Both the position numbers and the translations under genes were made by a program. The notes beneath the pieces are model-generated. The model was given only the letters and a program-made list of their open reading frames with translations, had not been told where the DNA came from and did not search any database. A stretch of 20,000 nucleotides of DNA from an uncultured virus (IMG/VR IMGVR_UViG_3300029955_000846) (Duplodnaviria; Heunggongvirae; Uroviricota; Caudoviricetes). How positions within the stretch are numbered: the stretch's first letter is position 1; each line of letters opens with the position of its first letter. Location: IMG/VR virus record IMGVR_UViG_3300029955_000846. One strand, written 5' to 3'. Below, piece by piece: positions 3,607-18,320 of the stretch.

Positions 3607-3609
3607 AGT

Positions 3610-3912: not shown

Positions 3913-4271
3913 TTTTTTACGCCGCCGTGCCCTTCGAACGTGAGCATCGCGATCTTTTCGAGCGCCTCCAACTGCGCAGGCATCGGCAGAAGGTCGACCA
4001 GATTGACGTCCGGCTCATCGGCGCCAGCGGCAACGATCTGTCGAAAAGCTGCGGGAGCCACCTGGGCAATGGCTGTGATCATCACGGCGGTATCGGTCAG
4101 CAGACCCGGCACACCGCCTTTCGAGAACCTGTCGAACAACAGGGCGAGAGGCTCGAAATTTGCTTGGACAATGGGTTGAATGTCGAGGAAGCCGAGCCCC
4201 CGAACGGAGAATGATTCCCCGTTCAGGAGTTCGACCTTGTCGGTGCGGCTTGTCAGGTGCGCAAGTCCCAC
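3852..4271 (-). CDS. Tail assembly chaperone (gpG-like), ~139 aa
   Basis: GTG at 4271 preceded by GGAG just after the tail tube stop. Lies between tail tube and tape measure and contains GTA AAA AAA near its 3' end. Confidence 0.8.
   Translation of the reverse strand: MGLAHLTSRTDKVELLNGESFSVRGLGFLDIQPIVQANFEPLALLFDRFSKGGVPGLLTDTAVMITAIAQVAPAAFRQIVAAGADEPDVNLVDLLPMPAQLEALEKIAMLTFEGHGGVKKVGEMVIRVLDSLRVTMGSF
3912..3918 (-). other. -1 programmed ribosomal frameshift slippery heptamer A AAA AAA
   Basis: X XXY YYZ pattern in the correct phase (GTA AAA AAA GTG). A -1 slip joins the downstream ORF, giving a ~220-aa fusion. Confidence 0.8.
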
Positions 4272-4284
4272 GAGCCCGCTCCGA

Positions 4285-5094
4285 TCAGACGCCGATACCA
4301 TCGACAAACATGAAGGTGCTAGCGCTGCTGAGCAGCAAGACCTTCAAGTCGAAGGTGATCTCGGCGAACTTGTCACCAATCGCGTCATAGGTGCCGTTGG
4401 GGACCAGCTTGACCCACGGCAGATACCAGACGTCGTTCGAGCCGGTGCTGTTGTCCGAGATATAGCGCACGGCGCCCTCCATCGGCTTGGTGCCGGCGGT
4501 GACCCGCGTCTTGGAAACTGCCAGGAGCGAATAGCCGACACTGAGCGTTTCCCCAGACGTGATCGAGCCGCCAGGAAGGGGCTGAATGCGGGCCATCGTA
4601 TAGTCGACCAGGTAATCCACGCCTTCGACATACGTCGTCGTCCCGGCCCCGTTCTTCACCACGGGTTTGGTCGCGGTGCTGAGCGACTGGACGCCCACCG
4701 GGTTGGCGCCGCCGGCCCGGCCGAGTTGATAGTAGGCACCGAGAAGCACCGGGCCGATCTGCTCCGGGGCGATAGCGCCGGCCGCCTGCGTGATCGTCTG
4801 GGGACCACCAGAAGCGAAAAGGAAGCGCGAAAGCTGGTTCGCGTCCACGTTCTCGCTCTGGATCTGGCCCGATGCGTCCGCCTGGATCGCAGCAGATTCA
4901 TCCATCACCTTCACGCCACCGGTCGACTGGTAGTGATCGGTCTGGGTCGTCTTGATCGCGACGTTGAAGCCCTTGCAGTCGCCGAGGAACATTTCGCCTG
5001 TGAGGCTCTGCGTTCCGGGGGCGAAGGCATCAAAGAAGACCGCACCGCGGCCAGTCCGATAGTTGTTGACAACGGGAGTCAGAATGGAAGGCAT
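4285..5094 (-). CDS. Major tail tube protein, ~269 aa
   Basis: AAGGAG precedes ATG at 5094. Beta-rich Gly/Thr sequence (NYRTGRGAVFF...FLGDCKGFNV...WYLPWVKLVPNG); position before the chaperone and tape measure. Confidence 0.8.
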   Translation of the reverse strand: MPSILTPVVNNYRTGRGAVFFDAFAPGTQSLTGEMFLGDCKGFNVAIKTTQTDHYQSTGGVKVMDESAAIQADASGQIQSENVDANQLSRFLFASGGPQTITQAAGAIAPEQIGPVLLGAYYQLGRAGGANPVGVQSLSTATKPVVKNGAGTTTYVEGVDYLVDYTMARIQPLPGGSITSGETLSVGYSLLAVSKTRVTAGTKPMEGAVRYISDNSTGSNDVWYLPWVKLVPNGTYDAIGDKFAEITFDLKVLLLSSASTFMFVDGIGV

Positions 5095-5135
5095 AACGGT
5101 CACTCCTTGATAGTGAAATCACCCATAACGTGATT

Positions 5136-5669
5136 TCAGGGGTAGGCAAAGGGGCTCGTCATATCCTCGAAAAACTCGAGGGTGAGCGGCAGGAAGAAGT
5201 TGGCCATGGCCGATACATCGTCCGGCGGCCGCACGACGCCGGTAGCGATTTTGTAGGAGCGAACCGCGCGGCCGACCCCGAAGATATTCCCCGATCCCAA
5301 GGCCGCTTTGAGATGGAGCGCGAGGCACTTCTTCACATCGGCCATCAGGTAGTGGGCGGGATCGGTCGGATTTGTCGGATCATCCTGGACGAATCCCTGA
5401 ACGAACAATGGCCATGGGCCAGCACCCAACCCGGAAAACTCGGGAGCAAACCCCCACTCTGGGCGCGGTTCCTCAAGGATCGAAAGCATCGGCAGCGGGT
5501 CGTCCATGCCGAACACATTTCGGCCGCGGAACACTCTGGGGCGCGTGTCGCCGTTGGTATCCACATAGTCCGAGAGATCGTGCTGATAGCCGGCGGCCGG
5601 CGTGATGCCTTGCAGCAACGCCGTCAGACCCATCAGCGTGGCCAGCTTGATTGGAATCAGCATGCTCAT
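5136..5669 (-). CDS. Putative tail terminator/completion protein, 177 aa
   Basis: LQGITPAAGYQHDL...RVFRGR...LPMLSILE pattern, position immediately before the tail tube gene, ATGA overlap with the upstream gene. Confidence 0.65.
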   Translation of the reverse strand: MSMLIPIKLATLMGLTALLQGITPAAGYQHDLSDYVDTNGDTRPRVFRGRNVFGMDDPLPMLSILEEPRPEWGFAPEFSGLGAGPWPLFVQGFVQDDPTNPTDPAHYLMADVKKCLALHLKAALGSGNIFGVGRAVRSYKIATGVVRPPDDVSAMANFFLPLTLEFFEDMTSPFAYP

Positions 5670-6274
5670 TGCTTCAGATCCATCTGTCGATTGTATTCCT
5701 GCTCGAGGAACTCAGCCGCAGCCGGCGCAACCTCGGCGCGTGTCCCATCGAACACCTGACTGATGCTGGGGCCGTAGAGCAGCCACAACCCGTTGCTGAA
5801 CGCCTTCGGCAGGTATGCGCCAGCGGGCGGCCCCTTGCTCCGGACAGCGAGGCCCATGTTCGCGTTCGCCAGTCTGACGAGAAAGGCCTTCGGCATAACG
5901 ACAGCGCGACCCGGCTTGATCTCGACGGTGACACCCCCGGGGGCCCCCGGCTTGGGATTGCCCTTGACGAACCGCGCGAGTGAGGTGGGGTCCACACGCG
6001 CGCCGATCCGGCCGCTCAGCGATGCCGTCGAGGCGTAGGCCTTGACGATCAGTCGTCCTTCCGCCGGATTCAAGTAGCTGGCGGGAAAGGCGACCTGGCT
6101 TCGGATGGCCTCGGCGCTGCGCGTGCGGGTCCAGTCCAGAGCCTTGTTCACCGCTCTCTGCGCGCTCACAAGATGATGCTGCGCCACGTCATCGATCGCG
6201 TCGAAGGCCTCGATCCCAGAGATTGATATGCCGTAGCGCGAGCCCGCCGTATTGAAGATGGTGATTTTCGCCAT
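5666..6274 (-). CDS. Tail completion/neck protein (lambda gpZ-like), ~202 aa
   Basis: Start ATG 6274 overlaps the upstream stop (TGATG). RAVNKALDWTRT...KAFLVRL...LLYGPSISQVF resembles gpZ-like proteins. The ORF-track extension to 6562 overlaps the upstream gene. Confidence 0.7.
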   Translation of the reverse strand: MAKITIFNTAGSRYGISISGIEAFDAIDDVAQHHLVSAQRAVNKALDWTRTRSAEAIRSQVAFPASYLNPAEGRLIVKAYASTASLSGRIGARVDPTSLARFVKGNPKPGAPGGVTVEIKPGRAVVMPKAFLVRLANANMGLAVRSKGPPAGAYLPKAFSNGLWLLYGPSISQVFDGTRAEVAPAAAEFLEQEYNRQMDLKQ

Positions 6275-6690
6275 CAGACACCGTTTCCGGGATAGACGAT
6301 CTGGTCGCCATCTTCCGAGGGATAGGGCAGCCCATTGGCTGCGCCATTGATCATCGGGGCGATCTGCACATGCTGGAACCGGTCGTCCGGCGGCAGCGTA
6401 TGATCGATGGTATAGGCTTCGCCCTGTTCGAATGACAGGATTGCCCCTTTGGTGATTTGGGCTGTCGGGATCGCATCCAGATCGAACACCGCCCGGGGCG
6501 CCAGATTCTCCATCTCGGCAGGGTAGAGGCGCGAGCCTTTTACGTCGCCCATGCGATCCCACCGGTTGTGCAAGCGCACGCGCAATAGGACAGGGGCGGC
6601 GGAAAGGGTTCGCAGGTACACAACCGGGATCGCCATACGATGATGGAGATCCCGGCGTGCGTTCCGCTTAATGGTGCGGATTGGCACCAT
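6274..6690 (-). CDS. Putative head-tail joining (head closure) protein, 138 aa
   Basis: TGATG coupling at both ends; position between capsid region and gpZ-like gene. Function is from synteny only. Confidence 0.6.
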   Translation of the reverse strand: MVPIRTIKRNARRDLHHRMAIPVVYLRTLSAAPVLLRVRLHNRWDRMGDVKGSRLYPAEMENLAPRAVFDLDAIPTAQITKGAILSFEQGEAYTIDHTLPPDDRFQHVQIAPMINGAANGLPYPSEDGDQIVYPGNGV

Positions 6691-6989
6691 CAGACGAGGT
6701 CGTCGTGTTCCGCCGGGGTGCCAGGCGCCGCAGGAGCAGCGGGGGCATCGGTGGAGGTGGGCTTCAAGTCCGCCGCAGCGGCCAGCGCCGGATCAAGCGT
6801 CTTCTCCGGATGGGTCGCCCGGTAGATCAGCACTTCTTCATCGGTCGGCTCGCGCACAGCACCGGCTTTCGTCAGATGACTGACGTGATCGGCCGCGACC
6901 AGATGGACCGCGCCGGGCTGCAGGATCTTCAGTTCCTTGGTCTCCGGATCCGAATGGTAGACCACATGCTTGATGAACAAAAGGGGCAT
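6690..6989 (-). CDS. Hypothetical head-associated protein (lambda FI position), 99 aa
   Basis: GAGGTG before ATG; follows the capsid gene; Ala/Pro-rich tail ending EHDDLV. Confidence 0.65.
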   Translation of the reverse strand: MPLLFIKHVVYHSDPETKELKILQPGAVHLVAADHVSHLTKAGAVREPTDEEVLIYRATHPEKTLDPALAAAADLKPTSTDAPAAPAAPGTPAEHDDLV

Positions 6990-7005
6990 AAGTCACCTCA
7001 AAGTT

Positions 7006-7037
7006 GACTCAGTCAGCAAGTCAATGCTGACCGAGTT
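7006..7037 (-). terminator. Hairpin downstream of capsid gene (weak terminator or mRNA-stabilising stem)
   Basis: Minus strand AACTCGGTCAGCA-TTGACT-TGCTGACTGAGTC, ~12-bp stem, followed only by AACTTT (poor U-tract). Confidence 0.45.
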
Positions 7038-7046
7038 GGGTTGCAA

Positions 7047-8198
7047 TTACGAAGCGGTCACCGTCGCGCGGAACGTCGCGTTCGGGTTGACCGGCACGAA
7101 CAGCGGGGCCGACTGGTGCAACAGGTATTCGACGGCGGGGTCGCCCGGCTCGTACCAATTGCGCGGGAAGATATCGAGCGCCTGCCAGTTGGCATAGGGA
7201 TCGACGATCGCCCCGAAGCAGCGATGGCCCGAGATCGCATCCGGATGGCCGGTAAGCACGATATCGGTGGGGGCAAGGAACGGCTGCTCCACACCGGTAT
7301 CGTCAACATAGCTGTCCCGATACAGCCAGATTTCGACCACCGCGCCGGTGGGCCCACCAAAAGGCAGATCGCCAACCTTCGTGACGAACTCGCCCGACAC
7401 CAGCGCACGCTGGACGTCGATCCCGGTATTCGGGTAGAACTTGTTCATCATCGACAGGATTTCGGGATCGCTGCGCATGGCCTGCCACGCCGAGGTGCCG
7501 ACGGTCAGCCGGATCGGGAAGCCGCCGAAACCGCCGGTGCCATCCGAATTGTAGGTCGGCTTCATCATCTGGTCAGCCCAGGTCTGCAGCATCGACAGGA
7601 TGCTGATACCCGAAGTCCCCCAAAACGAGCCAGCGGTGAGGGCGACGCTCTGATTGGCGTTCCGGCCGAAGTTCACCGTGGTCAGCGGATATTCCTCGGT
7701 GCCGCCAATGGTCACCTGACCGTAGATGATCGCTTGCGCGGCCATCCACTCCCAACGGCGCTGGATGGTGATCAAGTGCTGGGCGGTCATGCCCGCCTTG
7801 AGCGCATCGCGCCGCTGGGCGGGCGTCAGCGGCGTATCCGTGCCGAGGATCGCGTCGATGCCGGGGATCTTGGACATGACGCGCGCCGGATCAACGGCGT
7901 CCTTGACCTTGATATAGGCCGGCTTGAAGCGGTAGCCGTTCGCCCGATCGGTATAGACCGGCTTGCCGCTGCCGCTGGGCAGCACGAACGGCGCCAGCTT
8001 GCGATTCTGATAGGGCAGCTTCTCGAAATCGATCCACTCGTCGATGCTGTTCACCTGGCGGTTGAACATGTCCAGCCAGTAGGTGAAGCGCGGCAGGACG
8101 TCGCGCATGACGCCGATCGACTTGCGCAGCGACCAGAGATTGAACGGGTTGGTGGCGGAATAGGGGGCGATCGTCACGCCCGTGGCACCAGTGGTCAT
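7047..8198 (-). CDS. Major capsid protein, lambda gpE family, 383 aa
   Basis: GAGGAG SD. RKLAPFV, FKPAYIKVKDAVDP, RRWEWMAAQAI and HQSAPL motifs typical of capsid E; follows the decoration gene. Confidence 0.92.
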   Translation of the reverse strand: MTTGATGVTIAPYSATNPFNLWSLRKSIGVMRDVLPRFTYWLDMFNRQVNSIDEWIDFEKLPYQNRKLAPFVLPSGSGKPVYTDRANGYRFKPAYIKVKDAVDPARVMSKIPGIDAILGTDTPLTPAQRRDALKAGMTAQHLITIQRRWEWMAAQAIIYGQVTIGGTEEYPLTTVNFGRNANQSVALTAGSFWGTSGISILSMLQTWADQMMKPTYNSDGTGGFGGFPIRLTVGTSAWQAMRSDPEILSMMNKFYPNTGIDVQRALVSGEFVTKVGDLPFGGPTGAVVEIWLYRDSYVDDTGVEQPFLAPTDIVLTGHPDAISGHRCFGAIVDPYANWQALDIFPRNWYEPGDPAVEYLLHQSAPLFVPVNPNATFRATVTAS

Positions 8199-8232
8199 TT
8201 TATAGACTCCTCACGAAAAGAGTGATTGTCGA

Positions 8233-8655
8233 TCAGGGCTGCGGCTGAATCGGGCGCCAGCGCACCGTGATGGTGGTGGGCGTCGGCGCACCGGCGAAGG
8301 CTGCCTGCTGGAACGCCTGCGTGTTGTACGAAGCGTCGTAGACAAGGGCGTTCCCGTTGAAGCATCCCGAGAAGTAGACCGGAATGGATTCGCTCGAATC
8401 GCCAGCGGCCGTGACGATCGGCACCGAGGCGACGCCGATCGCCTGGGTGACGCCCTTCACCGCCGGAATAAGCTGGCCGCCCGCATTCAGGCCAACGACC
8501 TGAAACTGAGCGATCGTGGTGTTCGGGGCCACGGGGTAGGGATACGACTTGAGCGGGAGGTCCGACCCGGCGAGCAGAAACGACTGCAGCCAGGTATCGG
8601 TCTGCTGGAAGCTCGCCTGACCGAGAACCGGATAGGGAATGGTAACCTGTGCCAT
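8233..8655 (-). CDS. Head decoration protein (gpD-like), ~140 aa
   Basis: Between protease and capsid; QAIGV...VYFSGCFNGNALVY motif. ATG 8655 chosen for SD spacing (8664 is the alternative). Confidence 0.8.
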   Translation of the reverse strand: MAQVTIPYPVLGQASFQQTDTWLQSFLLAGSDLPLKSYPYPVAPNTTIAQFQVVGLNAGGQLIPAVKGVTQAIGVASVPIVTAAGDSSESIPVYFSGCFNGNALVYDASYNTQAFQQAAFAGAPTPTTITVRWRPIQPQP

Positions 8656-8699
8656 TTGGCTCATCCTTCACGAAAAGAGTGACTCGACTGCCCAGTTGG

Positions 8700-9191
8700 T
8701 CAGCGGGTGGGGCCGTCCTTCAGCTTTTGGGTGCTGCGGAGGCCGGGGATACCCATTGCGGCGGCGGCGCTCAGCGCGCTCCCGGCGTCATCGGGATCTT
8801 CAACCCGCGCTTCGGGGCCGCCAGGCGTGACGCCTGCGCCGCCGGTGGCGCCCATGGCCGCGGCGAAGTTGGAATTGGCGTGCGCGCTGACCGGCGGATC
8901 GGCAGCCGGGACCGCCGCAACCGGCGCGGCTGCCGACGGGGCAGGGGTTTCCGCAGGCAGATCGGCCATAAAGGACGCAGCATCCGCAGCGCTCATCGTC
9001 TGCTTGAATGCGATCTTGCGGGCGAGTGCGGGATGCGTCTGGGCTTCCGGGCTGTTCAGGATCGCGTCGATGCGGGTGCGTTCGGCGGTGGTGCCTTCGG
9101 CGACGCCGGCGGCGTGACCTTCGGCGCGCGCGGACGCGACGGCGGTATCATGGGCGGCCTGATCGACCGTCCCACTGCTCTGATTGGACAT
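8700..9191 (-). CDS. Nested in-frame scaffolding protein (Nu3-like), 163 aa
   Basis: Internal GGAG-N8-ATG (MSNQSSGT...) in frame with the protease; Ala-rich with AERTRIDAIL. Confidence 0.6.
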   Translation of the reverse strand: MSNQSSGTVDQAAHDTAVASARAEGHAAGVAEGTTAERTRIDAILNSPEAQTHPALARKIAFKQTMSAADAASFMADLPAETPAPSAAAPVAAVPAADPPVSAHANSNFAAAMGATGGAGVTPGGPEARVEDPDDAGSALSAAAAMGIPGLRSTQKLKDGPTR

Positions 9192-10073
9192 TTCGGTTTC
9201 TCCATCGTCAGATGCGAGGTGATCGGCCAGAAATTTGGCCATGGCATCGCCCGGCGCGCCGCTGGTGTCAGCGAGACCGTTCGACAGGGCTTGCGCAGCA
9301 GTGAAAGTCCTACCCTTCGTGTCCCGAACGGTCGTCTCGTCCATGCTGCGATTCCGGGACACGAGGCCCACGAAATGCTGATAAAGTTCGTCGACGCTGG
9401 CTTGCATCCGATCCCGATGATCGTCGCCGAGCGGGGCATAAGGGCTGCCTGCGGTCTTATCGCCACCCTCGGGAGCCGAGATCAGGGTCATCTTGACCCC
9501 AGCCTTGTCCATCGCCTTGGACACATCCATGTGTCCGGTAACGACACCCACCGAACCCGCCCCGCCGGTGCGCGATACCGAAATGCAATCGGCCGGGGTC
9601 GCCAGGCTGTACGCTGCGGAATAGGCCGGCTCCGCGCTGGCGAGTACGGGCTTCGTTTTGGTCGCGACCATGTGGTCGACGAGATCGAAATTGCCGGCGG
9701 CGTGACCACCACTAGATGAGATTGAAAGATGCACAGCCTTCACATTGGGATCGGCCATGCCGCGGTCCCATGCGCGCGAAAGGTACTGGTAACCCGTGGC
9801 CCAGGGGGTCGAATAACTGAAGCCGTTCAGAAGTGTGCCAGTCACCGGAATGGTGAGCACACCATCCTGCACATTATACGGACGGTACTGCGCGCGCCAA
9901 TCATCGGCCGCAGGCCAAAACCCATCATCGGTACTGCCACCAGCGGCGAGCATCTCAAGTCCATGGTCCATAATCGCCAGCTTTTGCGAGCAATCGGCGA
10001 GCCACGAGGCTTGGTCTGCGGCAACCAATGCGACCGAGCCAGAGAAGGACGAGAGGAAAGCATCAACGCCCAC
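8700..10073 (-). CDS. S49-family prohead protease with C-terminal scaffold (lambda gpC/Nu3-like), ~457 aa
   Basis: ISSSGG, AYSAAYSLA (catalytic Ser), GSVGV, GGDK motifs. GGAGG precedes GTG at 10073 (the track start 10124 lacks an obvious SD). Confidence 0.9.
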   Translation of the reverse strand: MGVDAFLSSFSGSVALVAADQASWLADCSQKLAIMDHGLEMLAAGGSTDDGFWPAADDWRAQYRPYNVQDGVLTIPVTGTLLNGFSYSTPWATGYQYLSRAWDRGMADPNVKAVHLSISSSGGHAAGNFDLVDHMVATKTKPVLASAEPAYSAAYSLATPADCISVSRTGGAGSVGVVTGHMDVSKAMDKAGVKMTLISAPEGGDKTAGSPYAPLGDDHRDRMQASVDELYQHFVGLVSRNRSMDETTVRDTKGRTFTAAQALSNGLADTSGAPGDAMAKFLADHLASDDGETEMSNQSSGTVDQAAHDTAVASARAEGHAAGVAEGTTAERTRIDAILNSPEAQTHPALARKIAFKQTMSAADAASFMADLPAETPAPSAAAPVAAVPAADPPVSAHANSNFAAAMGATGGAGVTPGGPEARVEDPDDAGSALSAAAAMGIPGLRSTQKLKDGPTR

Positions 10074-10207
10074 GGGCACCTCCCGCGGCTTGCTTTGAAA
10101 TGCAATCTTTGTGGCGAGTGTCACGCAAAAGTTGACTTACGTCCAAAACTTGGCGACAAGGATCGCGCTTGAGAACCAACGGCGAGTCGTGACCCATGAG
10201 ACGGAAG

Positions 10208-11926
10208 TCATCCATTGCTCTTGCCTTTCGCCTTCCCACCCTGGAAACCGCTGGCGCTCTGCCCGCTGTCTTGCTGGCCAAGTGTGCCGGTGGTGGCGTT
10301 CATCATGTCGGACGACACGTTTTGCAGGATGCCCAACTTGTCCATCATCTCGCGCTCGCGCTGGATCTGGGCGAACAGCTTGCGCCAATCCATACCGAGG
10401 CGGGCCGCCTCTCGCTGATAGCTCGAGATGCCGAAAATAATGCGCTGGATCGCGGCCTGCGTTTCCTTAAGCTCATCTACCTGGCCACGGCTCGCACCAA
10501 TCCATTCGGCCTGCGTGTATGCGTCGAAGAACAGGCCGAGCCGCCCGTTGGCATCATAAATCGACGGGCACTTGCGGGTCAGCGACGTGATCTGGCCTGC
10601 GTTGACGGCTTCCTCGAACCACAGGCGGTATATCTGGTTGGCGAAAGCGTCGGTGCCCCGCCGCTTCTTGGACTGCATGCCCTTCCACGTCTCGACCGCT
10701 CCCGCGCGGAACGAGGCATAATTGACATGGCTATAGTCCCGCGAAAGCTGCTCATAGCTGACGCCGAGGTTGGCCGAGAGATAGCGCAGCAGGGACGCTT
10801 CAAAGTTCGTCCCCATCGCATCGCTGCCGCCGGCCGGACGAAGTTGCAGCTTCGTCCCAGGGAACAGATGGGGGATTTTCACCCCGTCGATCGCGATGTT
10901 CTTGGCGCCCTTCGCGTAGGCCCCCACCGCCGCGAGATAACCTTGCGCGTACTGGGTGATCATCTTCTCAAACGCGACTTCCGAGACGTTGCCGCCCCCA
11001 AGCTGTGTCATCACCGTTTCACTCGGCAAATCGGATTCAATCGTGGCCGCATACGTCGCGTTGACCACGGCATTCTGCAGCACGACGTCCCGATATCGCT
11101 TCGTCATCCGCATCTCTTTGAGTGCGGAAACCATGGTGGAAACGCCGCGCGATTGATCGACGCGCCAGCGATCGACAATGTGGATGACCTTCGGGCGCCC
11201 CCAGGGCTCACGGGCAGGCACCCGCTGCCAAGTGTAGGCGTCGATGCTGGCGATCGAGGAAAAGTCAACGGGATGGGCCTTGCGGATATGGTATCCGATC
11301 GGCACCCCATCATTGTTCTTCTCGACCCCGCCGCGCAGGTTCGGGTTATCCCACTGGCCGTAAGGGTTCGACAGCCGGTCAGTATCGATCATCTGGATCG
11401 CCGTGCCGAACGGACGCCCATCGCTCATCCACTCGGACGAGGCGAGGATCTCGCTGCCCGACACCATCAGGCCGGCAGCCATGCGGACCATCGACGTGAA
11501 GTCGTGGGCCATGGTTTTATCGATCCAATGGCTGGGGCTATCGGCCCAAACCTGGAACTTCGATTCAACCTCGCGCTGGAATTCCTCGGCCCATGTGGAA
11601 TCCAGCCCCAGCACCTCGAGATTGGGGTGGCAGTTCAGCAGGTAATGCGATCCGACAATGTTGTCTTTGTGGATCTCGGAACCAGCGAACACGTAGGAGT
11701 CGTTGCGGATGCTGTCGCGCACGCGGGCGTCCAGCAACGGTTTATCGTTCAGGATATCGAAATCGGCCGAGGTCAGCGATGGCTGCCACAAGGCCAGGGT
11801 CTCGTCGAAACGCTGGGCGCCCTCATAGGCACCGCCGACCATCATGTCGGGCCCATCCTGCCGGGGGGTCACGAAAGAAGTGACTTGCGGGGGGCCGATC
11901 AGGTCATGATCTTCCTGGGTGAGCAT
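10208..11926 (-). CDS. Portal protein, lambda family, 572 aa
   Basis: ARVRDSIRND, IDTDRLSNP, GVPIGYHI, QSRGVS, LGVSYEQLSRDYSHVNYAS and VDELKE motifs; follows gpW. Confidence 0.93.
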   Translation of the reverse strand: MLTQEDHDLIGPPQVTSFVTPRQDGPDMMVGGAYEGAQRFDETLALWQPSLTSADFDILNDKPLLDARVRDSIRNDSYVFAGSEIHKDNIVGSHYLLNCHPNLEVLGLDSTWAEEFQREVESKFQVWADSPSHWIDKTMAHDFTSMVRMAAGLMVSGSEILASSEWMSDGRPFGTAIQMIDTDRLSNPYGQWDNPNLRGGVEKNNDGVPIGYHIRKAHPVDFSSIASIDAYTWQRVPAREPWGRPKVIHIVDRWRVDQSRGVSTMVSALKEMRMTKRYRDVVLQNAVVNATYAATIESDLPSETVMTQLGGGNVSEVAFEKMITQYAQGYLAAVGAYAKGAKNIAIDGVKIPHLFPGTKLQLRPAGGSDAMGTNFEASLLRYLSANLGVSYEQLSRDYSHVNYASFRAGAVETWKGMQSKKRRGTDAFANQIYRLWFEEAVNAGQITSLTRKCPSIYDANGRLGLFFDAYTQAEWIGASRGQVDELKETQAAIQRIIFGISSYQREAARLGMDWRKLFAQIQREREMMDKLGILQNVSSDMMNATTGTLGQQDSGQSASGFQGGKAKGKSNG

Positions 11927-11929
11927 CGC

Positions 11930-12145
11930 TTAGAACCAGGGCCGCATGGGACGATTGACCCGGCTATGCGGGTTCAATTTGTCCTCAAGGGACGTAATGT
12001 AGTCTTGCAGCTTATTGGCGTTAACCTGCGTATATTGCACGGTTTCGCCGTTCTGGTCCTTGACCATAACCACCGAGCGGCCGGTCATCAACAGATGATA
12101 GGCCTCACGCGCTTCCGACAGCAATTGGGCAATCGTGCTCTGCAC
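11930..12145 (-). CDS. Head-to-tail joining protein gpW, 71 aa
   Basis: AREAYHLLMTGRSVV..DQNGETVQYT matches the gpW pattern; AAGGAG SD; lies between terminase and portal. Confidence 0.88.
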   Translation of the reverse strand: MQSTIAQLLSEAREAYHLLMTGRSVVMVKDQNGETVQYTQVNANKLQDYITSLEDKLNPHSRVNRPMRPWF

Positions 12146-12157
12146 GCGGCGTGCTCC

Positions 12158-14245
12158 TTACGCCAATTGGGAAGCGAGACTTTCTAGGCTAATATCACTC
12201 TTTTGGTGACTGTCAAACGGCTTGGCCGCATTTTCGGCGAACACAAGATCATTCTGCTCCCAGCCATCGGCCCAGCCAGGGGGATATTCCCAATTGATAT
12301 GATCGAGGTTGGGGGAGACCTGGCGCCCGTTCAACGCGACGGAATAAGCGTAATAGAGCAGATCCCATGCCTCGTTGCGCCGCGACCCGATTTTTATCCA
12401 GCCCTTGTCCGTTCGCGTTTCGGCGCAAAGCTGGGAATACAGCCAGTCGGGCATCCAGTGCGGAAAGTTCACCATGCCACCGCCGGGTGTCTCGCGGCCA
12501 AGCCGATTTGCCGCGACGTCCTTCATCAGGTTCGAGTTGATGAACAGCACTGGGATATCGCCGCGGGCGAGCGCCATGCGATCCTTCTTCTGAGAGTCCG
12601 GGTATCCGACGTGGACGCGCGGCGCGGATTTGCTCGGCTCACCCTTGAGCAGTTGGAACCGGATCGAAGCCTGATCCTCGCGGGTGTCCCGCAGCTTGCG
12701 CCAGAACTGGTATGCGTTCGCGGTGACGCCGGCCTTGCCGCCCGAGTCACAACCGATCGCCTTGACCGACATGCGCCGGCCCGACCCATCCGCGAGTGGA
12801 TAGGAGCGCTCGATCACTTTTTCTATCAGGACATCCCAATCTTCCAGATAGGCCCCCGGGTCGAGCAACTCGCGTTCTCCGCGATCGTTGATGCGGGTCT
12901 CTGACCGGGTGATGCGATCGGAATCGACGATCCAGACATCGCCCCCTTCGCCAAAACCATGCACTTGGTAGACGAATGCGCTTTTCTGGATATCGACGGT
13001 GGTGATCAGAAAGCGCACGCCCAGCGGCACGGCGGGGTCGTCTGCGGTGCCACCCCAATCTTTCGCGCGCGCCTTGAGATGCTCTGGCAGACGCTCGAGC
13101 CGAGACGCTTGGGGAATATAGGCATCACCCTGATCGGTGTTGGTGGTGACCTTGAGCGATTCTTCAGACCCAGTGTTCTCGAAATCCTGCTTGGCTTGCA
13201 GGTATTTGAGGACCAGCGATGTCCAATCCTGGAATGCTGCCGCCGGCCCCTTCAACCAGAAGCTCGAGATATCCGTGCGGCGCGGGCGCCCGACGATCTC
13301 GCCATCGGGTTGCCAGATCATACCATCCTTGATCCACCGGCCAGCGTTGTTCAGTTCACGCTTCAGCGCCGGGGGAATTGGGTAACCGCAATGGGGGCAG
13401 GGGAGGGTGACCTGCTCAGCGATTTCCAGCAGGTCGATAGTGTCGATGTCGGGGTAATCGAACATCGAAAAATTGGCCTCGAACTTCTCGTTGCACTGCG
13501 GGCATGGCCAATACCAGCGGCGGCGATCACCGCGGTTATAGAGGGCGAGAATTCCGTCAACAGGGGGTGCCTCATGCGCGGATTTGGCCAGCCAGTTGGG
13601 GTCCTTGATCTCGAACCCGGGCGAGGACTCCGCGACGCACATTCCGAACCGCTTGAAGGTCGTGGCGCGCTTTCGGGCCAGATCGTAAGGGTTACCTTCG
13701 CCGTCGACGTCCTGCGTCATGCGGTCGTAATCCATCAACCACAGGCGCGGGACAGTCTTGCCCGATAGCTCATTGATGGTCGGCCACTTGATCAGCAGCC
13801 GCATTCCCGACTTGAACCACTTGTCGAACACGTTGTCGTTTTGCCGGCCGGGGACCAGCAATTCGCCCAAGGCCTTGGAATGGCGGAAAGCGCGTGCAAG
13901 ATCGCCGAGAGACCAGTCGCGGGCCGTCGCTTGCGTCATGTGCAGCAGCATCATATCTGCCGGATCGCACTTGGCAGTGTGCAGCAAGTAATTGAAAAAC
14001 ATATCAGACTTGCCGGTACGCGCCGGCCCGGCAAAGATCATGCCGGTGAAGTCCAACGAGGTGGTCTCGTTCATCGGTTCGACGAGATATGGGGCAAACG
14101 TATTGTCCCAGTAGCCGACGAACGACCCTTGGTTGTTCAGGAAGCGATAACGCTCCGCGCACTCAGCCACGGTGACGCGCTCAGGCGGCCGAAGCATGCT
14201 CGCCGCCTGAGCGATCAGATGCTCAAGGGAGACATATGCCCCCAT
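12158..14245 (-). CDS. Terminase large subunit, GpA family, 695 aa
   Basis: APYLVEPM, Walker A GPARTGKS, EGNPYDLARKRATTF, GDRRRWYWPCPQC/CPHC, TVDIQ, CDSGG and RNEAWDLLYY motifs. Confidence 0.95.
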   Translation of the reverse strand: MGAYVSLEHLIAQAASMLRPPERVTVAECAERYRFLNNQGSFVGYWDNTFAPYLVEPMNETTSLDFTGMIFAGPARTGKSDMFFNYLLHTAKCDPADMMLLHMTQATARDWSLGDLARAFRHSKALGELLVPGRQNDNVFDKWFKSGMRLLIKWPTINELSGKTVPRLWLMDYDRMTQDVDGEGNPYDLARKRATTFKRFGMCVAESSPGFEIKDPNWLAKSAHEAPPVDGILALYNRGDRRRWYWPCPQCNEKFEANFSMFDYPDIDTIDLLEIAEQVTLPCPHCGYPIPPALKRELNNAGRWIKDGMIWQPDGEIVGRPRRTDISSFWLKGPAAAFQDWTSLVLKYLQAKQDFENTGSEESLKVTTNTDQGDAYIPQASRLERLPEHLKARAKDWGGTADDPAVPLGVRFLITTVDIQKSAFVYQVHGFGEGGDVWIVDSDRITRSETRINDRGERELLDPGAYLEDWDVLIEKVIERSYPLADGSGRRMSVKAIGCDSGGKAGVTANAYQFWRKLRDTREDQASIRFQLLKGEPSKSAPRVHVGYPDSQKKDRMALARGDIPVLFINSNLMKDVAANRLGRETPGGGMVNFPHWMPDWLYSQLCAETRTDKGWIKIGSRRNEAWDLLYYAYSVALNGRQVSPNLDHINWEYPPGWADGWEQNDLVFAENAAKPFDSHQKSDISLESLASQLA

Positions 14246-14259
14246 CAGATCAGATCCTC
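14242..14259. repeat. 18-bp direct repeat copy 1 (CCATCAGATCAGATCCTC) at methyltransferase/terL junction
   Basis: Identical to 15312-15329; extends to 21 bp with one mismatch. On the minus strand it holds the GAGGA SD and the TGATG stop/start. Confidence 0.9.
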
Positions 14260-15315
14260 GTCGCTTACAAGCTCAAGGCGAGCAAGATCGCCAATCGCCT
14301 CAACTGCGGAGAGGATGAACGCCATTGCTGCGGGCGCGACGATCGCGTTGCCGGCACCTTTGAGGAGCCCTTGGCGCGATTTGCCTTCAAAGGTGCCGCC
14401 GCTATCCAATCGGAAGGCAGCCCCATCAACCAGAGGGAATGTGCCGGGTTCAACTGGCCGCCACTTTCCATCCCGGCATCCGAGCCAGTCAACATCTCGC
14501 CAGAAACCGTTAGTCGGGCCGGGGTCGCCAGATGCGTCGCTACCGAAGTCAACGTGTCGAACTTGCCCCTCGACCACCGGGCCCCCGAGGACTCCGAGTC
14601 CTCGCTGCGTGTGGTCGGCCGGCCTGCCAATACCACCAATTCGTTCAATGGTGGCCCCTTCGCTCCCCGATCGTGCGGCCCCGCATTCGGTCGGCCCTTC
14701 CAATCCCTGGCCTGTGGACATGGCCAACCGGCCAATGGCACCGTCTCTGGGAGCGCCATCGCGTTTTTCCGCGGCGACACCAGACCGCCCTTGATTGAAT
14801 CGCTCACCAATGGAGTAGGCCACCCAGTAGTTCCGGTCTCGGATGTGCGGCGCGCCGATGCCCGCAGCCGGAAACGGGACACACCCGAAGGCGTAGTCCA
14901 AGGTTTCCAAGTCAGCGTGTACAAGGTCGACCCAAACTTCTGCGTTCTTGCTCGCAACCTGCTCTCCAGCAACGATTGCAGGACGGCACTGTTGGATGAG
15001 CCAATACCAGGTCGGCCACAAATGCCGCTCGTCAGCAAACCCATCTCCCTTGCCTGCCGCGCTGAAAGGCTGGCAGGGACAGGATCCTGTCCAGATGGGA
15101 GCGCTGTCTGGCCAACCAACGGATCGGAGAGCAAAAGACCAGACGCCGATCCCGGCAAAGAAATGGCATTGGGTGAATTCTCGCAGGTCATCAGGGCTGA
15201 CGTCCTCAATTGATCTGTTGTCAACATAGCCGGGCGCAATCAACCCACGCGTGATTAGACCGCGAAGCCACTCGGCCGCATGGGGATCGAACTCATTATA
15301 ATAGGCCCACGCCAT
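14245..15315 (-). CDS. C5 cytosine DNA methyltransferase, alpha subunit, 356 aa
   Basis: FFAGIG (motif I), GSCPCQPFS (IV), GEQV (VI), GAPHIRDR (VIII), GNAI (X). No recognisable motif IX in this frame. Confidence 0.9.
14265..15191 (-). CDS. Putative methyltransferase beta subunit encoded in an alternative frame wholly inside the alpha gene (~308 aa; start uncertain)
   Basis: Long same-strand overlapping ORF with [18 protein letters not shown] (motif IX-like, 14406-14462) and repeated WPTP/WPCP/RPTT units. Confidence 0.75.
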
Positions 15316-15329
15316 CAGATCAGATCCTC
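15312..15329. repeat. 18-bp direct repeat copy 2 at terS/methyltransferase junction
   Basis: Identical to 14242-14259. Confidence 0.9.
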
Positions 15330-16103
15330 ATCTTCCGGCAAAAGAACTGGGTCCGGGGCAATCTGATTAATGATGACTTCGGGGTCTTTGATGGAACTCG
15401 GAGTCTGCTTACGTCCCGGCAGCGAGACCATTTGCTGATAGATTTCGTCCATCAGCCCATCGACCATTACCTGGAATTTGGCCCGGGCTTCCGATGGCAT
15501 TTCGCCATCTGGATCAAGATTATCGACCCATAGTTGCATGGATCCCTTGATCGTCTTGAACATTTCGGAAAGTACCGCGAACACCGCATCGGTTTTCCAG
15601 AGTTCGCCAGCGTTCTCTTCCCAGATTTGCCGTTTGCGCATTGCTGACCAGTAGGTGTCCTGCAATTGGACCGGCATGTCGCTGGTACGCAGACCGCGCA
15701 TCCAGCGCGCAAATTTGTCGGGATCCGGGGGTGCCAACAGCGTGGTCGCCTGGACGAAGTCGAACAACTCGCGGTTGCCCTTGCTGATCGCGAGTGGCTT
15801 CAGGCCCGCCAGGCGCTTCCGAACGGTGCGACTGTCCACGCGAAAGGCTGAAGCGAGCCAAGCGATATTGACGCCCGACGACAACGACTCCGCGCGCACT
15901 GCGAATGTGCGGACCTGTTCCTCATCAACGTCGTCGCCCATGCGCGCGAGGATGCGCTCCATGCGATCGGGGCGCTTCGACGGCGCGGGCATGCCGTCAA
16001 TATCTACTTCCGGGAGGGAATTTTTGCGCGGGCGGCCGCGACCTCTTTTGGGGAGAGGATTCGCAACAGCCCAGTCGACGGCCTCGTCATCCGGTGACGG
16101 CAT
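15315..16103 (-). CDS. Terminase small subunit (DUF1441-like) with N-terminal AT-hook-like motif, ~262 aa
   Basis: HTH-like IAWLASAFRVDSRTVRKRL, YWSAMRKRQIWEENAGELW and KRGRGRPRK; upstream of terL. Start is tentative (ATG 16103). Confidence 0.78.
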   Translation of the reverse strand: MPSPDDEAVDWAVANPLPKRGRGRPRKNSLPEVDIDGMPAPSKRPDRMERILARMGDDVDEEQVRTFAVRAESLSSGVNIAWLASAFRVDSRTVRKRLAGLKPLAISKGNRELFDFVQATTLLAPPDPDKFARWMRGLRTSDMPVQLQDTYWSAMRKRQIWEENAGELWKTDAVFAVLSEMFKTIKGSMQLWVDNLDPDGEMPSEARAKFQVMVDGLMDEIYQQMVSLPGRKQTPSSIKDPEVIINQIAPDPVLLPEDEDLI

Positions 16104-16278
16104 CGGCGATCCGATCGCTGATCCACCGTTCGATCTCAGTTTTCCGCCAGACGGAAACACGGCCGAGTTTCAGCGGTTTGGGGAAGCGCTTTTCATCGAT
16201 CAGGCGATAAATCATGCTGCGTCGGTATCCGACACACCGGGACACGTCCGGCAAACGCATGAGGGTTTCGGCCAACAT
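16087..16278 (-). CDS. alpA: AlpA-family DNA-binding protein (probable excisionase/recombination directionality factor), 63 aa
   Basis: LMRLPDVSRCVGYRRSMIYRLIDEKRFPKPLKLGRVSVWRKTEIERWI is a typical AlpA pattern; near a P4-type integrase. Confidence 0.9.
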   Translation of the reverse strand: MLAETLMRLPDVSRCVGYRRSMIYRLIDEKRFPKPLKLGRVSVWRKTEIERWISDRIADAVTG

Positions 16279-16285
16279 GTTTTTG

Positions 16286-16314
16286 ACCATAGTCACCAAA
16301 AAAGTGACACGCAA
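16286..16314 (-). promoter_or_regulatory. Sigma70-like promoter for alpA-terS operon with palindromic operator as spacer
   Basis: TTGCGT (16314-16309), 17-bp spacer GTCACTTTTTTGGTGAC, TATGGT (16291-16286). Predicted start falls at or next to the alpA ATG. Confidence 0.65.
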
Positions 16315-16354
16315 CCTATTTATCTACGCTCAAAAATGGGCTATAGACTGATTC

Positions 16355-16425
16355 GCGCTAGCAGCGCATCCTCTCCCGAACTAGGCCACCAGAGCATGCC
16401 CCCGCTCTGGTGGCCTTTCTTTTTT
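16355..16425 (+). ncRNA. Candidate ~70-nt small RNA with CU-rich anti-SD-like seed
   Basis: -10-like TAGACT at 16344-16349, small hairpin GCGCT/AGCGC, single-stranded ATCCTCTCCC, then a strong terminator. No + strand gene upstream explains the terminator. Confidence 0.5.
16383..16425 (+). terminator. Rho-independent terminator
   Basis: Perfect 13-bp stem AGGCCACCAGAGC/GCTCTGGTGGCCT, 8-nt loop, followed by TTCTTTTTT. Confidence 0.85.
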
Positions 16426-16466
16426 ATCACCTTTTAGTTGACATAAATCTTATTGGTTGGCATAAA
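16426..16466 (+). promoter_or_regulatory. Sigma70-like promoter overlapped by operator-like palindrome
   Basis: TTGACA 16438-16443, 17-bp spacer, CATAAA 16461-16466. ATCAC-N7-TTGAC at 16426-16442 overlaps the -35. Confidence 0.6.
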
Positions 16467-16509
16467 ACTCAAATCGCGAACGGCTGTTGGCCACCCTGCG
16501 ATGGGTGGA

Positions 16510-16714
16510 GGATGTAGGAGCGATGGCGAGGAAAGGCGGGCACGATGCCAAGGGTCTTCGCCGACAGATCTGGGATAAGACCGTAAAACCCGGATCAACC
16601 AGTTTCAGAGGTGAGCCTCCCCACTAGACAGGGCTTACGGCACCCCACGGGGACAAGGTGTCGGCCAGTCGGCAGGTATCCAGGGGAGCGCCCGGCTTCC
16701 CATCGCCGGCATCC
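16510..16714 (+). ncRNA. Candidate structured RNA of unknown class (~205 nt)
   Basis: Nine mutually compatible nested helices plus two potential pseudoknots found by eye (see findings); no ORF of 60 aa or more. Confidence 0.55.
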
Positions 16715-16727
16715 GGGCATATAGGTT

Positions 16728-16822
16728 TCTAGCGACCCGCAGGTAATTCAGCGGGAGAAGTTGAACCAACCAACGGTGTTCATCGTGCCGGGGTTCAATT
16801 CCCCGGACTGCGGGTCGCTAGA
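16728..16822 (+). ncRNA. tRNA-like element (non-canonical)
   Basis: 15-bp perfect closing stem, D-like arm TTC-AGCGGGA-GAA, TGAAC/GTTCA arm with 11-nt loop, T arm CCGGGG-TTCAATT-CCCCGG; no CCA. Confidence 0.65.
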
Positions 16823-16912
16823 TCTGATCGGGTGATGGTAGAAATCCAGAACAGGAATGCTAGACCAGCACTGCGCCGAGGATTCCGGCAGCTACCGTCA
16901 CCCGATCAGATC
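16821..16912. repeat. 21-bp inverted repeat spanning the integrase stop codon
   Basis: GATCTGATCGGGTGATGGTAG (16821-16841) vs CTACCGTCACCCGATCAGATC (16892-16912); one mismatch, which is a U-G pair on the + strand. Confidence 0.85.
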
Positions 16913-18079
16913 GTCGTTCTCGAACTGGTCCAACATATCCGCCCAGGCCTGCATCATCTGCGTGCGCCCCTCGAGATATTCGGCGGCGTTGTAAGCCCCG
17001 CGAACCTTGTTTTCCTCGACGTGAGCAAGCTGGCGCTCCACCCAGTCGAAATTCCAACCAGCCTCATTCAGAACGGTTGATGCCATGCGGCGAAAGCCGT
17101 GGTGCGTCGCCTGCTCTTTGGAAAAGCCCAGATTGCGCAGCGCTGCGTTGACGGTGTTCTCGCTGATCGGGCGCTGGTCAGATCGCAGCGACGGAAACAG
17201 CAAACCCTTCGGCTCGTAGAACGTCTTGAGGCGTTCTAGGCATGAGACGGCCTGGCGGCTGAGTGGCACGTAATGCAGCCGCTTCATTTTCATGCGCTCG
17301 GCGGGGATCGTCCACAAGGCTTGGTCGAGATCGATTTCCGACCAGGTGGCCATCCGCAGTTCGCCAGGCCGCACGAACGTGATCGCACCGAACCTCATGG
17401 CGACCCCGACGGCGGGATGCCCCTTGTACTCGCCTATAGCGCGCATAAGAGCGCCTATCGCACTGGGGGTGAGGGGTGCAGCGCGGTGCTTCTCTTTTGG
17501 GGCTACCATGAGCGCGCCGGCGATATCGGCGCATGGATCGCGCAGGGCCACCCCACTGGCGATCCCGAAGCGGAAGACCCGAGAGCAAACGGTGCGTAGG
17601 CGGCGGGCTGAATGATGGCGCCCTTGAGCCTCCACACGGCGAATCAGTTCGAGCACCTCGGGCGCCTCGATCGTGGTGATGTCGCGATCATTGAGGCTTA
17701 CCACGAACCGAAGCAGCCATTCGGTCTTCTCGATCGTTGCTTGCGCGGATTCCGGGATCACGCGCGTCACAAGCCACTGCTCGGCAACCGTCCCAAAGGT
17801 GGTTACCGATTTCCGCTCCGGTTCGGCTTGGCCCTTCGGATCGCCCGAGGATCGCAAATTATCGCGCGCTTCATCGCGAAGGGTGCGCGCCTGCTTCAAG
17901 GTCACCTCGGGAAAGGTGCCGAGCGCCATCGTCTTCCGCTTGCCGCCAGCATCGTAATCAAGCCGCCAGCAGCGCGTGCCGTTTGCCTTCACCAGCAGAT
18001 AGAGGCGTTGTTCGTCGAACATTTTGTAGTCGCGCTCGCGCGGTTTTGCGTTGCGCACGACGAGATCGCTAAGTGGCAT
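16898..18079 (-). CDS. int: P4-family tyrosine integrase, 393 aa
   Basis: N-terminal arm-binding domain (MPLSDLVVRNAKPRERDYKMFD...LGTFPEVTLKQAR); catalytic R (FVRPGE), HGFR, LAH and GAYN; adjacent to the tRNA 3' end. Confidence 0.95.
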   Translation of the reverse strand: MPLSDLVVRNAKPRERDYKMFDEQRLYLLVKANGTRCWRLDYDAGGKRKTMALGTFPEVTLKQARTLRDEARDNLRSSGDPKGQAEPERKSVTTFGTVAEQWLVTRVIPESAQATIEKTEWLLRFVVSLNDRDITTIEAPEVLELIRRVEAQGRHHSARRLRTVCSRVFRFGIASGVALRDPCADIAGALMVAPKEKHRAAPLTPSAIGALMRAIGEYKGHPAVGVAMRFGAITFVRPGELRMATWSEIDLDQALWTIPAERMKMKRLHYVPLSRQAVSCLERLKTFYEPKGLLFPSLRSDQRPISENTVNAALRNLGFSKEQATHHGFRRMASTVLNEAGWNFDWVERQLAHVEENKVRGAYNAAEYLEGRTQMMQAWADMLDQFENDDLIG

Positions 18080-18082
18080 GTC

Positions 18083-18184
18083 GATACCCCGTAGGTTCCC
18101 GATACCCCGTCTGGATACCCCGAAATGGGTTGGACGTAGGTGGTTTTTGGTGGATTTATATGTGATGCCCAAACTCGGGGTATC
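18083..18184. repeat. Putative integrase arm-type binding sites (GATACCCCG x3 direct, x1 inverted)
   Basis: Copies at 18083-18091, 18101-18109 and 18114-18122; inverted CGGGGTATC at 18176-18184; between tRNA and int start. Confidence 0.7.
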
Positions 18185-18244: not shown

Positions 18245-18320
18245 TGGTGCCCGGGGACGGAGTCGAACCGCCGACACTGCGATTTTCAGTCGCATGCTCT
18301 ACCAACTGAGCTACCCGGGC
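18245..18320 (-). tRNA. tRNA-Phe (GAA), probable attB/att core
   Basis: GCCCGGGTAGCTCAGTTGGTAGAGCATGCGACTGAAAATCGCAGTGTCGGCGGTTCGACTCCGTCCCCGGGCACCA; 76 nt, full cloverleaf, encoded CCA. Confidence 0.98.

Follow-up and report, generated by a model that had tools for sequence, protein, structure and literature searches.

The 20,000-nucleotide (nt) window analysed in this study is a stretch of DNA from an uncultured virus of the Caudoviricetes (IMG/VR record IMGVR_UViG_3300029955_000846), in which a 205-nt stretch (16510–16714) had been predicted from the sequence alone to form a structured RNA. Gene and family calls indicate that the window represents the integrase end of a lambda-like prophage located at a tRNA-Phe gene. 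The gene order on the minus strand is tRNA-Phe, int, an intergenic gap, an alpA-like gene, terS, a C5 methylase gene, a gpA-type terL and a lambda-family portal gene, followed beyond the portal by genes encoding an S49 protease, a capsid E protein and a tape-measure protein. The tRNA-Phe(GAA) gene (18245–18320, minus strand), identified by both Rfam and ARAGORN, is the integration site, and int (16898–18079, minus strand) encodes a P4-type tyrosine integrase with an arm-binding domain. The AlpA-like helix-turn-helix gene (16087–16314, minus strand; PF05930, E 6.6e-13) overlaps the start of terS, which encodes the small terminase subunit (15315–16103, minus strand; DUF1441/phrog_141). The actual non-coding gap between int and alpA extends from 16315 to 16897 (~580 nt). 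The location of the 205-nt stretch next to the terminase genes, as originally described, is roughly correct, but the AlpA-like gene and a conserved promoter/operator intervene, and the stretch lies on the integrase side. IMG/VR carries identical DNA as a 47.6-kb provirus (G405; CheckV completeness estimate 75%), within which the 205-nt element is single-copy. Our analysis indicates that this non-coding region is genuinely and strongly structured, and that its informative features, namely a conserved operator, two long hairpins and a variable slot, are located outside 16510–16714. The 205-nt pseudoknotted RNA itself is unproven and statistically unremarkable.

Only 20 relatives of TerS were found among 5.8 billion proteins, the closer ones (P0002–P0011) being 46–55% identical, and the TerS alignment yielded 84 related loci, 4 from genomes and 80 from IMG/VR. 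Of these, 45 were picked by hand for inspection upstream of terS; near-duplicates and loci without upstream DNA were dropped. An AlpA-like gene overlaps terS in four of them, L005 (about 3256–3463), L006 (3166–3372), L009 (1–183) and L010 (784–975), and was confirmed by Pfam in all four. Judged by eye, most other inspected loci contain a large helicase-like open reading frame (ORF) upstream of terS. Locus L006, from Bosea vestrisii, displays the order tRNA-Phe, int (45% identical to that of the window), a 626-nt gap, alpA-like gene and terS. L005 also has an integrase, plus a genuine tRNA-Tyr (3131–3216) between the operator and alpA. Integrase relatives in IMG/VR were found at 12 loci, all in other islands, with a best non-self identity of 46%. 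No TerS-relative locus carries DNA similar to the gap of the window. The overlap of an AlpA-type winged-helix gene with the terS start in the window phage and four relatives occurs whether or not an integrase is nearby, and the AlpA-like protein may act in DNA binding as a partner of the small terminase or in late-gene regulation, and not as an excisionase.

A dyad, TCACCTTTTAGTTGA (TCAMC-N5-RKTGA), is located at 16427–16441 and aligns upstream of alpA in the relatives. It is conserved directly upstream of alpA in all four loci having upstream DNA (the window and three relatives), where it is followed by a -10-like hexamer, and the consensus aligns at 5 sites in these 4 loci. Based on this conservation, the dyad is probably an operator common to divergent promoters. 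The content of the slot between the operator and the int stop is variable. The L006 slot contains an opposite-strand 79-aa ORF with a hydrophobic helix, with a minus-strand terminator-like site between this ORF and int. The L010 slot contains an opposite-strand ORF with a signal-peptide-like N-terminus, and the L005 slot is almost empty, with about 100 nt from the int stop to the operator. In L006 and L010 the gene between the operator and the int stop is thus oriented away from alpA and toward int. The slot of the window is 430 nt in length and has no ORF of coding character.

Codon-position G+C content is flat in all six small slot ORFs (GC2 0.53–0.69); the corresponding values for int, terS and alpA are 0.43–0.45 for GC2 and 0.69–0.74 for GC3. 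The slot could nevertheless encode a small protein, either the 34-aa ORF noted in the original prediction, which does exist (ATG at 16523, stop at 16625–16627), its 46-aa extension (ORF46, 16487–16627), or a 41-aa ORF (ORF41, 16453–16578) that starts 11 nt past the dyad. A GGAGG motif 11 nt 5' of the ATG at 16523, the protein-coding slots of the relatives and a dyad-to-start spacing like that of other dyad copies would suit this explanation. However, neither ORF46 nor ORF41 has a homologue, not even a self entry, among the 5.8 billion proteins. None of nine window ORFs belongs to a Pfam family, the PHROGs search gave two matches only (E 0.22 and 0.24), codon-position G+C is flat or wrong, and a 13-nt, non-triplet insertion falls at the ORF end in a related sequence described below. 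A small protein is thus highly improbable. The 205-nt stretch is very probably non-coding, because coding G+C is flat and no ORF homologue and no Pfam or PHROGs family were found. A hok-type toxin mRNA was rejected as the slot ORFs are not hydrophobic, and a repeated miniature inverted-repeat transposable element was rejected as no second copy is present in the provirus or in 802 genomes.

The pairings proposed for the 205-nt stretch were checked by script. Eleven of the 12 listed complementarities are perfect at their coordinates (Watson-Crick plus G·U pairs), and all nine nested helices can be read in the sequence at their proposed positions; the fold is placed putatively on the plus strand. 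These helices include hairpin A (GATCTGGG/CCCGGATC; 16567–16596, plus strand), hairpin B (GTGAGCCT/GGGCTTAC; 16611–16638, plus strand) and hairpin C (GGCACC/GGTGTC; 16639–16662, plus strand), with pair probabilities of 0.99, 0.52 and 0.78, respectively. The two loop contacts proposed as pseudoknots or kissing loops are also readable in the DNA, GGTCTT/AAGACC exactly at its proposed positions and CTCCCC/GGGGAG as a complement as well. The alternative partner of the latter, CTCCC (16617–16621) with GGGGA (16649–16653), mispairs at one end and holds only as TCCCC (16618–16622).

The plus-strand minimum free energy (MFE) of 16510–16714 is -86.7 kcal/mol, compared with -75.9 ± 4.6 kcal/mol for 200 dinucleotide shuffles (z-score -2.36), and 1 of the 200 shuffles folded as well. 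The reverse strand gives -86.8 kcal/mol (z -2.22). A background control consisted of 146 segments of 205 nt, taken in 100-nt steps from positions 1–14,501, mostly in phage structural genes, with 25 shuffles each. The mean z-score of these segments is -0.69 (standard deviation 1.23; lowest -4.7), and 14 of the 146 (9.6%) have a z-score of -2.36 or lower; the fold energy of the 205-nt stretch is therefore ordinary for the local DNA. Fold energy is clearly below shuffles for 16470–16920 and for hairpin 2 (described below), and 16510–16714 is not clearly below shuffles and the genomic background together. The exact nested structure of the original prediction has an energy of -67.8 kcal/mol, exceeding the MFE by 19 kcal/mol. 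Partition-function probabilities over 16474–16912 are 0.00 for the helix 16544–16549/16675–16680 and 0.15 for the helix 16530–16533/16697–16700, and the remaining helices range from 0.52 to 1.00, with 16537–16541/16690–16694, 16560–16565/16668–16673 and hairpin A near 1.0. When the unpaired letters were shuffled 1000 times, 6% of the shuffles contained a perfect 6-nt complement between unpaired segments, such as that of pseudoknot 1 (GGTCTT/AAGACC). Pseudoknot 2 takes two bases of the helix at 16611–16618, and therefore only CCCC/GGGG is free. The specific outer helices and the pseudoknots of the 205-nt model are not established, and in GC-rich DNA such nested complementarity carries little weight by itself.

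Clear non-random structure sits just beyond these coordinates. The slot, from about 16470 to 16912, consists of three stem-closed domains, 16510–16714, 16728–16822 and 16821–16912, and the whole region 16470–16920 has a z-score of -6.59 on the plus strand and -6.44 on the minus strand. Directly 5' of the 205-nt stretch, a GC-rich inverted repeat, CCACCC-TGCGAT-GGGTGG (16491–16508), forms a hairpin in the MFE structure. The second domain, hairpin 2 (16728–16822, plus strand), is a rod-like 95-nt fold with a 15-bp (base-pair) perfect closing stem (z -6.55), and contains a canonical T-arm-like sequence, CGGGG-TTCAATT-CCCCG. ARAGORN makes no tRNA call in hairpin 2 at its default threshold. At a threshold lowered to 90%, it calls a tRNA-Trp(CCA)-like cloverleaf at 16737–16814, on the plus strand only, in which the acceptor and T arm are good, the D and anticodon arms are weak and position 33 is A; the acceptor stem is lengthened to 15 bp. 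The Rfam tRNA model has no match in hairpin 2 at E ≤ 10. Hairpin 2 may be what is left of a phage tRNA, or may act as a processing signal resembling a tRNA. The third domain, hairpin 3 (16821–16912), is an inverted repeat whose 21-nt arms show 95% complementarity; the final int codons plus the stop codon make up the right arm. The int C-terminal codons are thus present as a copy inverted 50 nt downstream, which forms the hairpin. Hairpin 3 is a candidate common 3'-end or terminator structure for converging transcripts.

The Rfam search at gathering thresholds identified only the tRNA-Phe in the window. At E ≤ 10, on both strands of 16250–16950, five weak matches were found, all far below gathering scores. 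These are two plant microRNA precursor models on the two rods, one small nucleolar RNA model, an mmgR/suhB-like match at 16348–16430 (RF00519; 16.7 bits against a threshold of 41, E 0.92) and the T-arm part of mascRNA at 16789–16805 (16.5 bits). No packaging RNA (pRNA), ribozyme, int-alpA, GOLLD/ROOL, transfer-messenger RNA (tmRNA) or Y-RNA model matched in this search. A two-piece tmRNA, a Y-RNA-like RNA and a retron msr-msd were considered and rejected, with no ARAGORN or Rfam support and no reverse transcriptase or Rsr gene nearby. These results bear on the original interpretation, in which the stretch is an autonomous, tertiary-folded RNA with two pseudoknots or kissing loops, acting as a ribozyme, a protein sponge or an oligomerising ring like the phi29 pRNA. 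The listed complementarities exist, the region is non-coding, and hairpin A, the P4 helix and the P6 helix are robust (probability 0.99–1.00). Against this, no ribozyme, pRNA or other Rfam model matches at E ≤ 10, the pseudoknot complementarity is at chance level and pseudoknot 2 competes with helix B. Moreover, the fold does not stand out from the local background, the only relatives seen show no visible conservation of the outer architecture, and the packaging genes, which include TerS, the gpA-type TerL and the lambda-family portal, are lambda-type. Such an RNA has a very small probability in our view. The broader claim of a structured RNA fared better, in that the stretch, which recurs in part, very probably has no coding function and the intergenic region around it is unusually structured, but the tertiary RNA and the phi29 pRNA analogy are unsupported.

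Part of the stretch recurs in other sequence contexts. It is contained in 22 peat DNA runs (three possibly its source), and two root RNA-library runs, X23 and X24, have a word share of 0.05. For X23 and X24 reads were aligned at 80% likeness, and the matches in both runs are contigs that indicate presence only. A 14.5-kb contig of X23 matches 16607–16678 (72 nt) with four differences, including 16628 A>T and 16640 G>T, and with 13 letters inserted at 16623–16626. A 162-nt contig of X24 matches 16631–16717 (87 nt) with four differences, including 16687 A>G. The matches thus extend over 72–87 nt at 90–95% identity, delimiting a recurring core at 16607–16717, and their flanks do not resemble the window. 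From the differences in X23 and X24, the block 16641–16678 appears to be unchanged in both, and we read the core of about 16631–16678 as being under constraint in at least three contexts. The X23 insertion and the change at 16628 fall within the loop of hairpin B, and the inserted letters are self-complementary and could form their own GCCGG/CCGGC stem. In our reading, this is the way real hairpins vary. The X24 change at 16687 falls in a bulge. Depth gaps in contigs and the small word shares of runs X16–X22 were given no evidential weight.

A conserved block without visibly conserved pairing partners would also suit a protein-binding site in DNA. The region could then be a DNA packaging site, with the cohesive-end site (cos), composed of terminase-binding repeats and a nicking site such as the GC-rich dyad 16491–16508, upstream of alpA-terS; the three copies each of GCGATGG and GCCGAC/GTCGGC would then be bound by proteins instead of forming RNA helices. 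In lambda-like phages cos is located just upstream of the small-subunit gene. The terminase here is lambda-type with a gpA TerL, the AlpA-like winged-helix gene is translationally coupled to terS in the window and in four relatives, and short motifs are repeated in direct and inverted copies. However, the homologous position is protein-coding in L006 and L010, and therefore cos cannot generally sit there. The stretch is also 400–600 nt away from the terS start, and molecule ends are not visible in contig-only runs. A packaging site is very unlikely.

The gene order, the operator, the variable slot without coding signal, the strong structure of the region and the recurring core lead us to favour, tentatively, a reading in which the 205-nt stretch may form the main part of an extended plus-strand RNA, a non-coding cargo transcript of the moron type that runs toward int from the opposite direction. 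The plus strand is favoured because the G·U pairs of the nested helices, 5 of 54 nested pairs, occur only there, because the T-arm and the tRNA-like cloverleaf of hairpin 2 exist only there, and because the orientation of the T-rich spacer of the 16427 dyad is that of the sense strand of the following gene in other intergenic copies. We infer that transcription would start near 16473, from a promoter-like sequence read by eye, TTGACA - 17 nt - CATAAA (16438–16466, plus strand), whose -35 element arises from one half-site of the dyad operator. The transcript would pass through the 205-nt domain and stop at hairpin 2 or 3, and these hairpins would also close the converging int message. Its likeliest job would be regulation around int, as a convergent or antisense RNA to the int 3' end in the style of lambda OOP/sib with long double-stranded stems; alternatively, it could be a trans-acting small RNA. 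If real, this plus-strand RNA would exemplify a moron slot taken up by a non-coding RNA, where related phages have genes for membrane proteins. Located where the phage switches between integration (int) and packaging (alpA-terS), it would give a handle on the timing of excision and late expression.

A more far-reaching version of this reading is that about 16473–16912 is one multi-domain phage RNA of roughly 440 nt, made from an operator-controlled divergent promoter and replacing membrane-protein morons. It would combine a junction domain, which contains the conserved core, with a rod resembling a tRNA and, at its end, a 21-bp stem across the int stop. This would represent an undescribed class of regulatory or anti-defence RNA, with a core also present in root-associated microbes. 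We consider this version unlikely.

The same structures could belong to the opposite strand, as a 3' untranslated tail of the int message. Its long stems would then control integrase levels, much as lambda sib does, by determining RNase III cleavage or message stability. Hairpin 3 starts inside the last int codons, the three domains follow directly on the int strand, and the minus-strand fold of 16470–16920 is equally strong (z -6.44). On the minus strand, however, the five G·U pairs become A·C mismatches and the T-arm-like motif does not read correctly. The slot also holds opposite-strand genes in L006 and L010, and is therefore not a conserved int tail. An int tail is quite unlikely.

Several results weigh against the plus-strand cargo transcript. 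No transcript of the slot was seen, and the RNA-library contigs of X23 and X24 do not demonstrate transcription, as DNA may be present in such libraries. A consensus scan finds no promoter on either strand, the plus-strand promoter-like site going uncalled because its -10 lacks the final T, and beyond 16416 it finds no terminator on the plus strand. For every domain the two strands have equal fold energies and z-scores; therefore, thermodynamics assigns no strand, and DNA-level inverted repeats fit equally well. The 205-nt fold on its own falls within the local background. The tRNA-like call in hairpin 2 needs the lowered threshold, at which spurious calls are frequent: in 625,044 bases the number of ARAGORN calls rises from 7 to 51. 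In X23 the 16640 G>T change turns a G·U pair of hairpin C into U·U and breaks it. X23 has no similarity to 16679–16717 or left of 16607, and in X24 similarity is lacking to the left of 16631. Conservation is therefore not visible for the outer helices or, in X24, for the 5' strand of hairpin B.

Similarity searches likewise found no relative. A distant-mode blastn search of 16300–16900 against 50,697 phage and 72,556 plasmid records gave no match, and blastn and nhmmer searches of the gap against 86 and subsequently 111 loci gave only self copies and chance matches of 14–37 nt. A covariance model of the nested structure (R1), built from a single sequence, scored 282.6 bits on itself and 15.1 bits on the next match, a coding gene, in 93 sources (572,914 bases), and found nothing above 10.2 bits on locus L119. 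Exact-pattern scans of IMG/VR and JGI metagenomes returned the source contigs only, plus a chance 18-mer in coding DNA of L119. Matches were found in 2 of 401 genomes of the class of G001 (22 and 37 nt) and in 11 of 401 genomes of its phylum (all 22–37 nt, ≤ 40 bits). Overall, no full-length relative was found in the phage, plasmid, genome, IMG/VR and metagenome searches made.

Many of these results would suit the absence of any dedicated RNA. The nesting of the 205-nt stretch would then reflect random pairing within a GC-rich spacer, and only hairpins 2 and 3 would matter, insulating int from the late (alpA-terS) operon or terminating transcription in both directions, perhaps as derivatives of a decayed phage tRNA gene. 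Fourteen of 146 ordinary segments fold equally far below shuffles, both strands fold alike, two of the proposed helices have probabilities of 0.00 and 0.15, and the pseudoknot is at the 6% chance level. No Rfam family matches, the outer helices show no visible conservation in X23, and the int stop codon lies within hairpin 3. L005 contains a real tRNA-Tyr in the corresponding intergenic neighbourhood. On the other hand, a 38-nt block (16641–16678) that appears unchanged in two other contexts, within matches of 72–87 nt at 90–95% identity, is unexpected for a neutral spacer. Neither hairpin 2 nor hairpin 3 is followed by a T run on either strand, and 430 nt is long for a spacer, given that L005 needs about 100 nt. 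Chance nesting with a terminator is the main rival and only slightly less probable than the plus-strand cargo transcript, which remains our preferred, if tentative, reading.

The dyad is not restricted to the slot. Allowing up to one mismatch, 30 strand-matches (about 18 sites) were found in the window, compared with 5.4 ± 2.9 in shuffled sequences, and none of 200 shuffles reached 30. There are 38 sites in the 47.6-kb provirus. The 15-mer starts at 5119, 6993, 8211, 8668, 10121, 11869, 16293 and 16427 in the window, the copies at 8211 and 8668 being identical, and at 1889, 3641, 4591, 5527, 12127 and 18095 in the provirus. Intergenic copies typically read TCACTCTTTTCGTGA on the sense strand and lie 1–25 nt 5' of gene starts (for example capsid, portal and alpA). 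This set of dyads could represent repressor sites resembling stoperators, phage-specific promoters or a small translational operator hairpin. In the provirus at 18095–18109 (locus L134, outside the window), a longer hairpin between converging genes, GCGGAG-TCACTAAAAACGTGA-CTCCGC, has the dyad as its core, which suggests that the motif can also form part of a terminator.

A strong intrinsic-terminator-like hairpin with a 13-bp stem and a T run is located at 16383–16416 (plus strand) in the alpA leader region, outside the element discussed here. On the plus strand, 16348–16430 consists of a hairpin, a CU-rich segment (UCCUCUCCC) and a very strong terminator, and resembles alphaproteobacterial mmgR-type small RNAs in architecture only. 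The minus strand of 16348–16430 is the alpA leader, with GGGAGAGGATG and a 3-codon mini-ORF. Among the other genes of the window, the tape-measure protein (1–3606, minus strand; more than 1202 aa, open at the window edge) has a C-terminal CHAP peptidase domain. The products of int (16898–16920), terS (15315–15335) and the methylase gene (14245–14265), all on the minus strand, share C-termini of the form (D/E)DLI(G), and the C-terminal consensus of the TerS family is DDxEDLIG. At the TerS/methylase and methylase/TerL junctions, the end of the upstream gene and the start of the next gene fall on one common coordinate.

The original analogy was drawn to the pRNA of phi29, in which an RNA ring serves the packaging ATPase and the connector, and a small terminase is absent. 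Outside phi29-like phages, pRNA is not known to occur. The window element is likewise phage-encoded, of similar size and equipped with internal loop complementarities, but it has no Rfam match, its phage has TerS, a gpA-type TerL and a lambda-family portal, and its loop complement is intramolecular, 6 nt in length and at chance level (6% of shuffles). GOLLD and ROOL are described as large structured RNAs of prophages and near tRNAs in PMC5737381. The window element resembles them in its prophage context near a tRNA and in its multi-domain structured non-coding region. Unlike them, it is much smaller (about 440 nt at most) and matches neither Rfam model.

Table 3 of PMC12370729 lists the int-alpA RNA motif by name among small-RNA families. 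The window element shares its setting, lying between int (16898–18079) and an AlpA-like gene (16087–16314) in a tRNA-adjacent integrated element. The motif reportedly originates from work by Weinberg and colleagues in 2017 (PMC5737381), the main text of which does not use that name. Unlike the motif, the window element has no Rfam model match in 16250–16950 on either strand at E ≤ 10, and it is therefore not a member of this family, provided that the family is in the Rfam release-15 copy searched.

In lambda, sib is a retroregulator of int located beyond attP, and OOP is an antisense RNA. The window element is similar to these in having structure over the 3' end of a lysogeny gene, with stems of 21 bp and 15 bp at the int stop that suit RNase III. 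It differs in having no sequence relation to them and in lying between int and the late operon, and RNase III processing would apply only by analogy. Prophage morons and prophage-borne small RNAs are accessory transcription units between core phage genes. Similar to morons, the slot of the window is variable and is flanked by conserved genes and an operator, and two relatives carry unrelated opposite-strand genes for small membrane proteins in it. Unlike morons, the window slot is ORF-free structured DNA without a family assignment, with a transcript that is so far putative. By analogy, the closest parallel to the window element in mode of action would be a moron, with lambda OOP and sib as further possible parallels.

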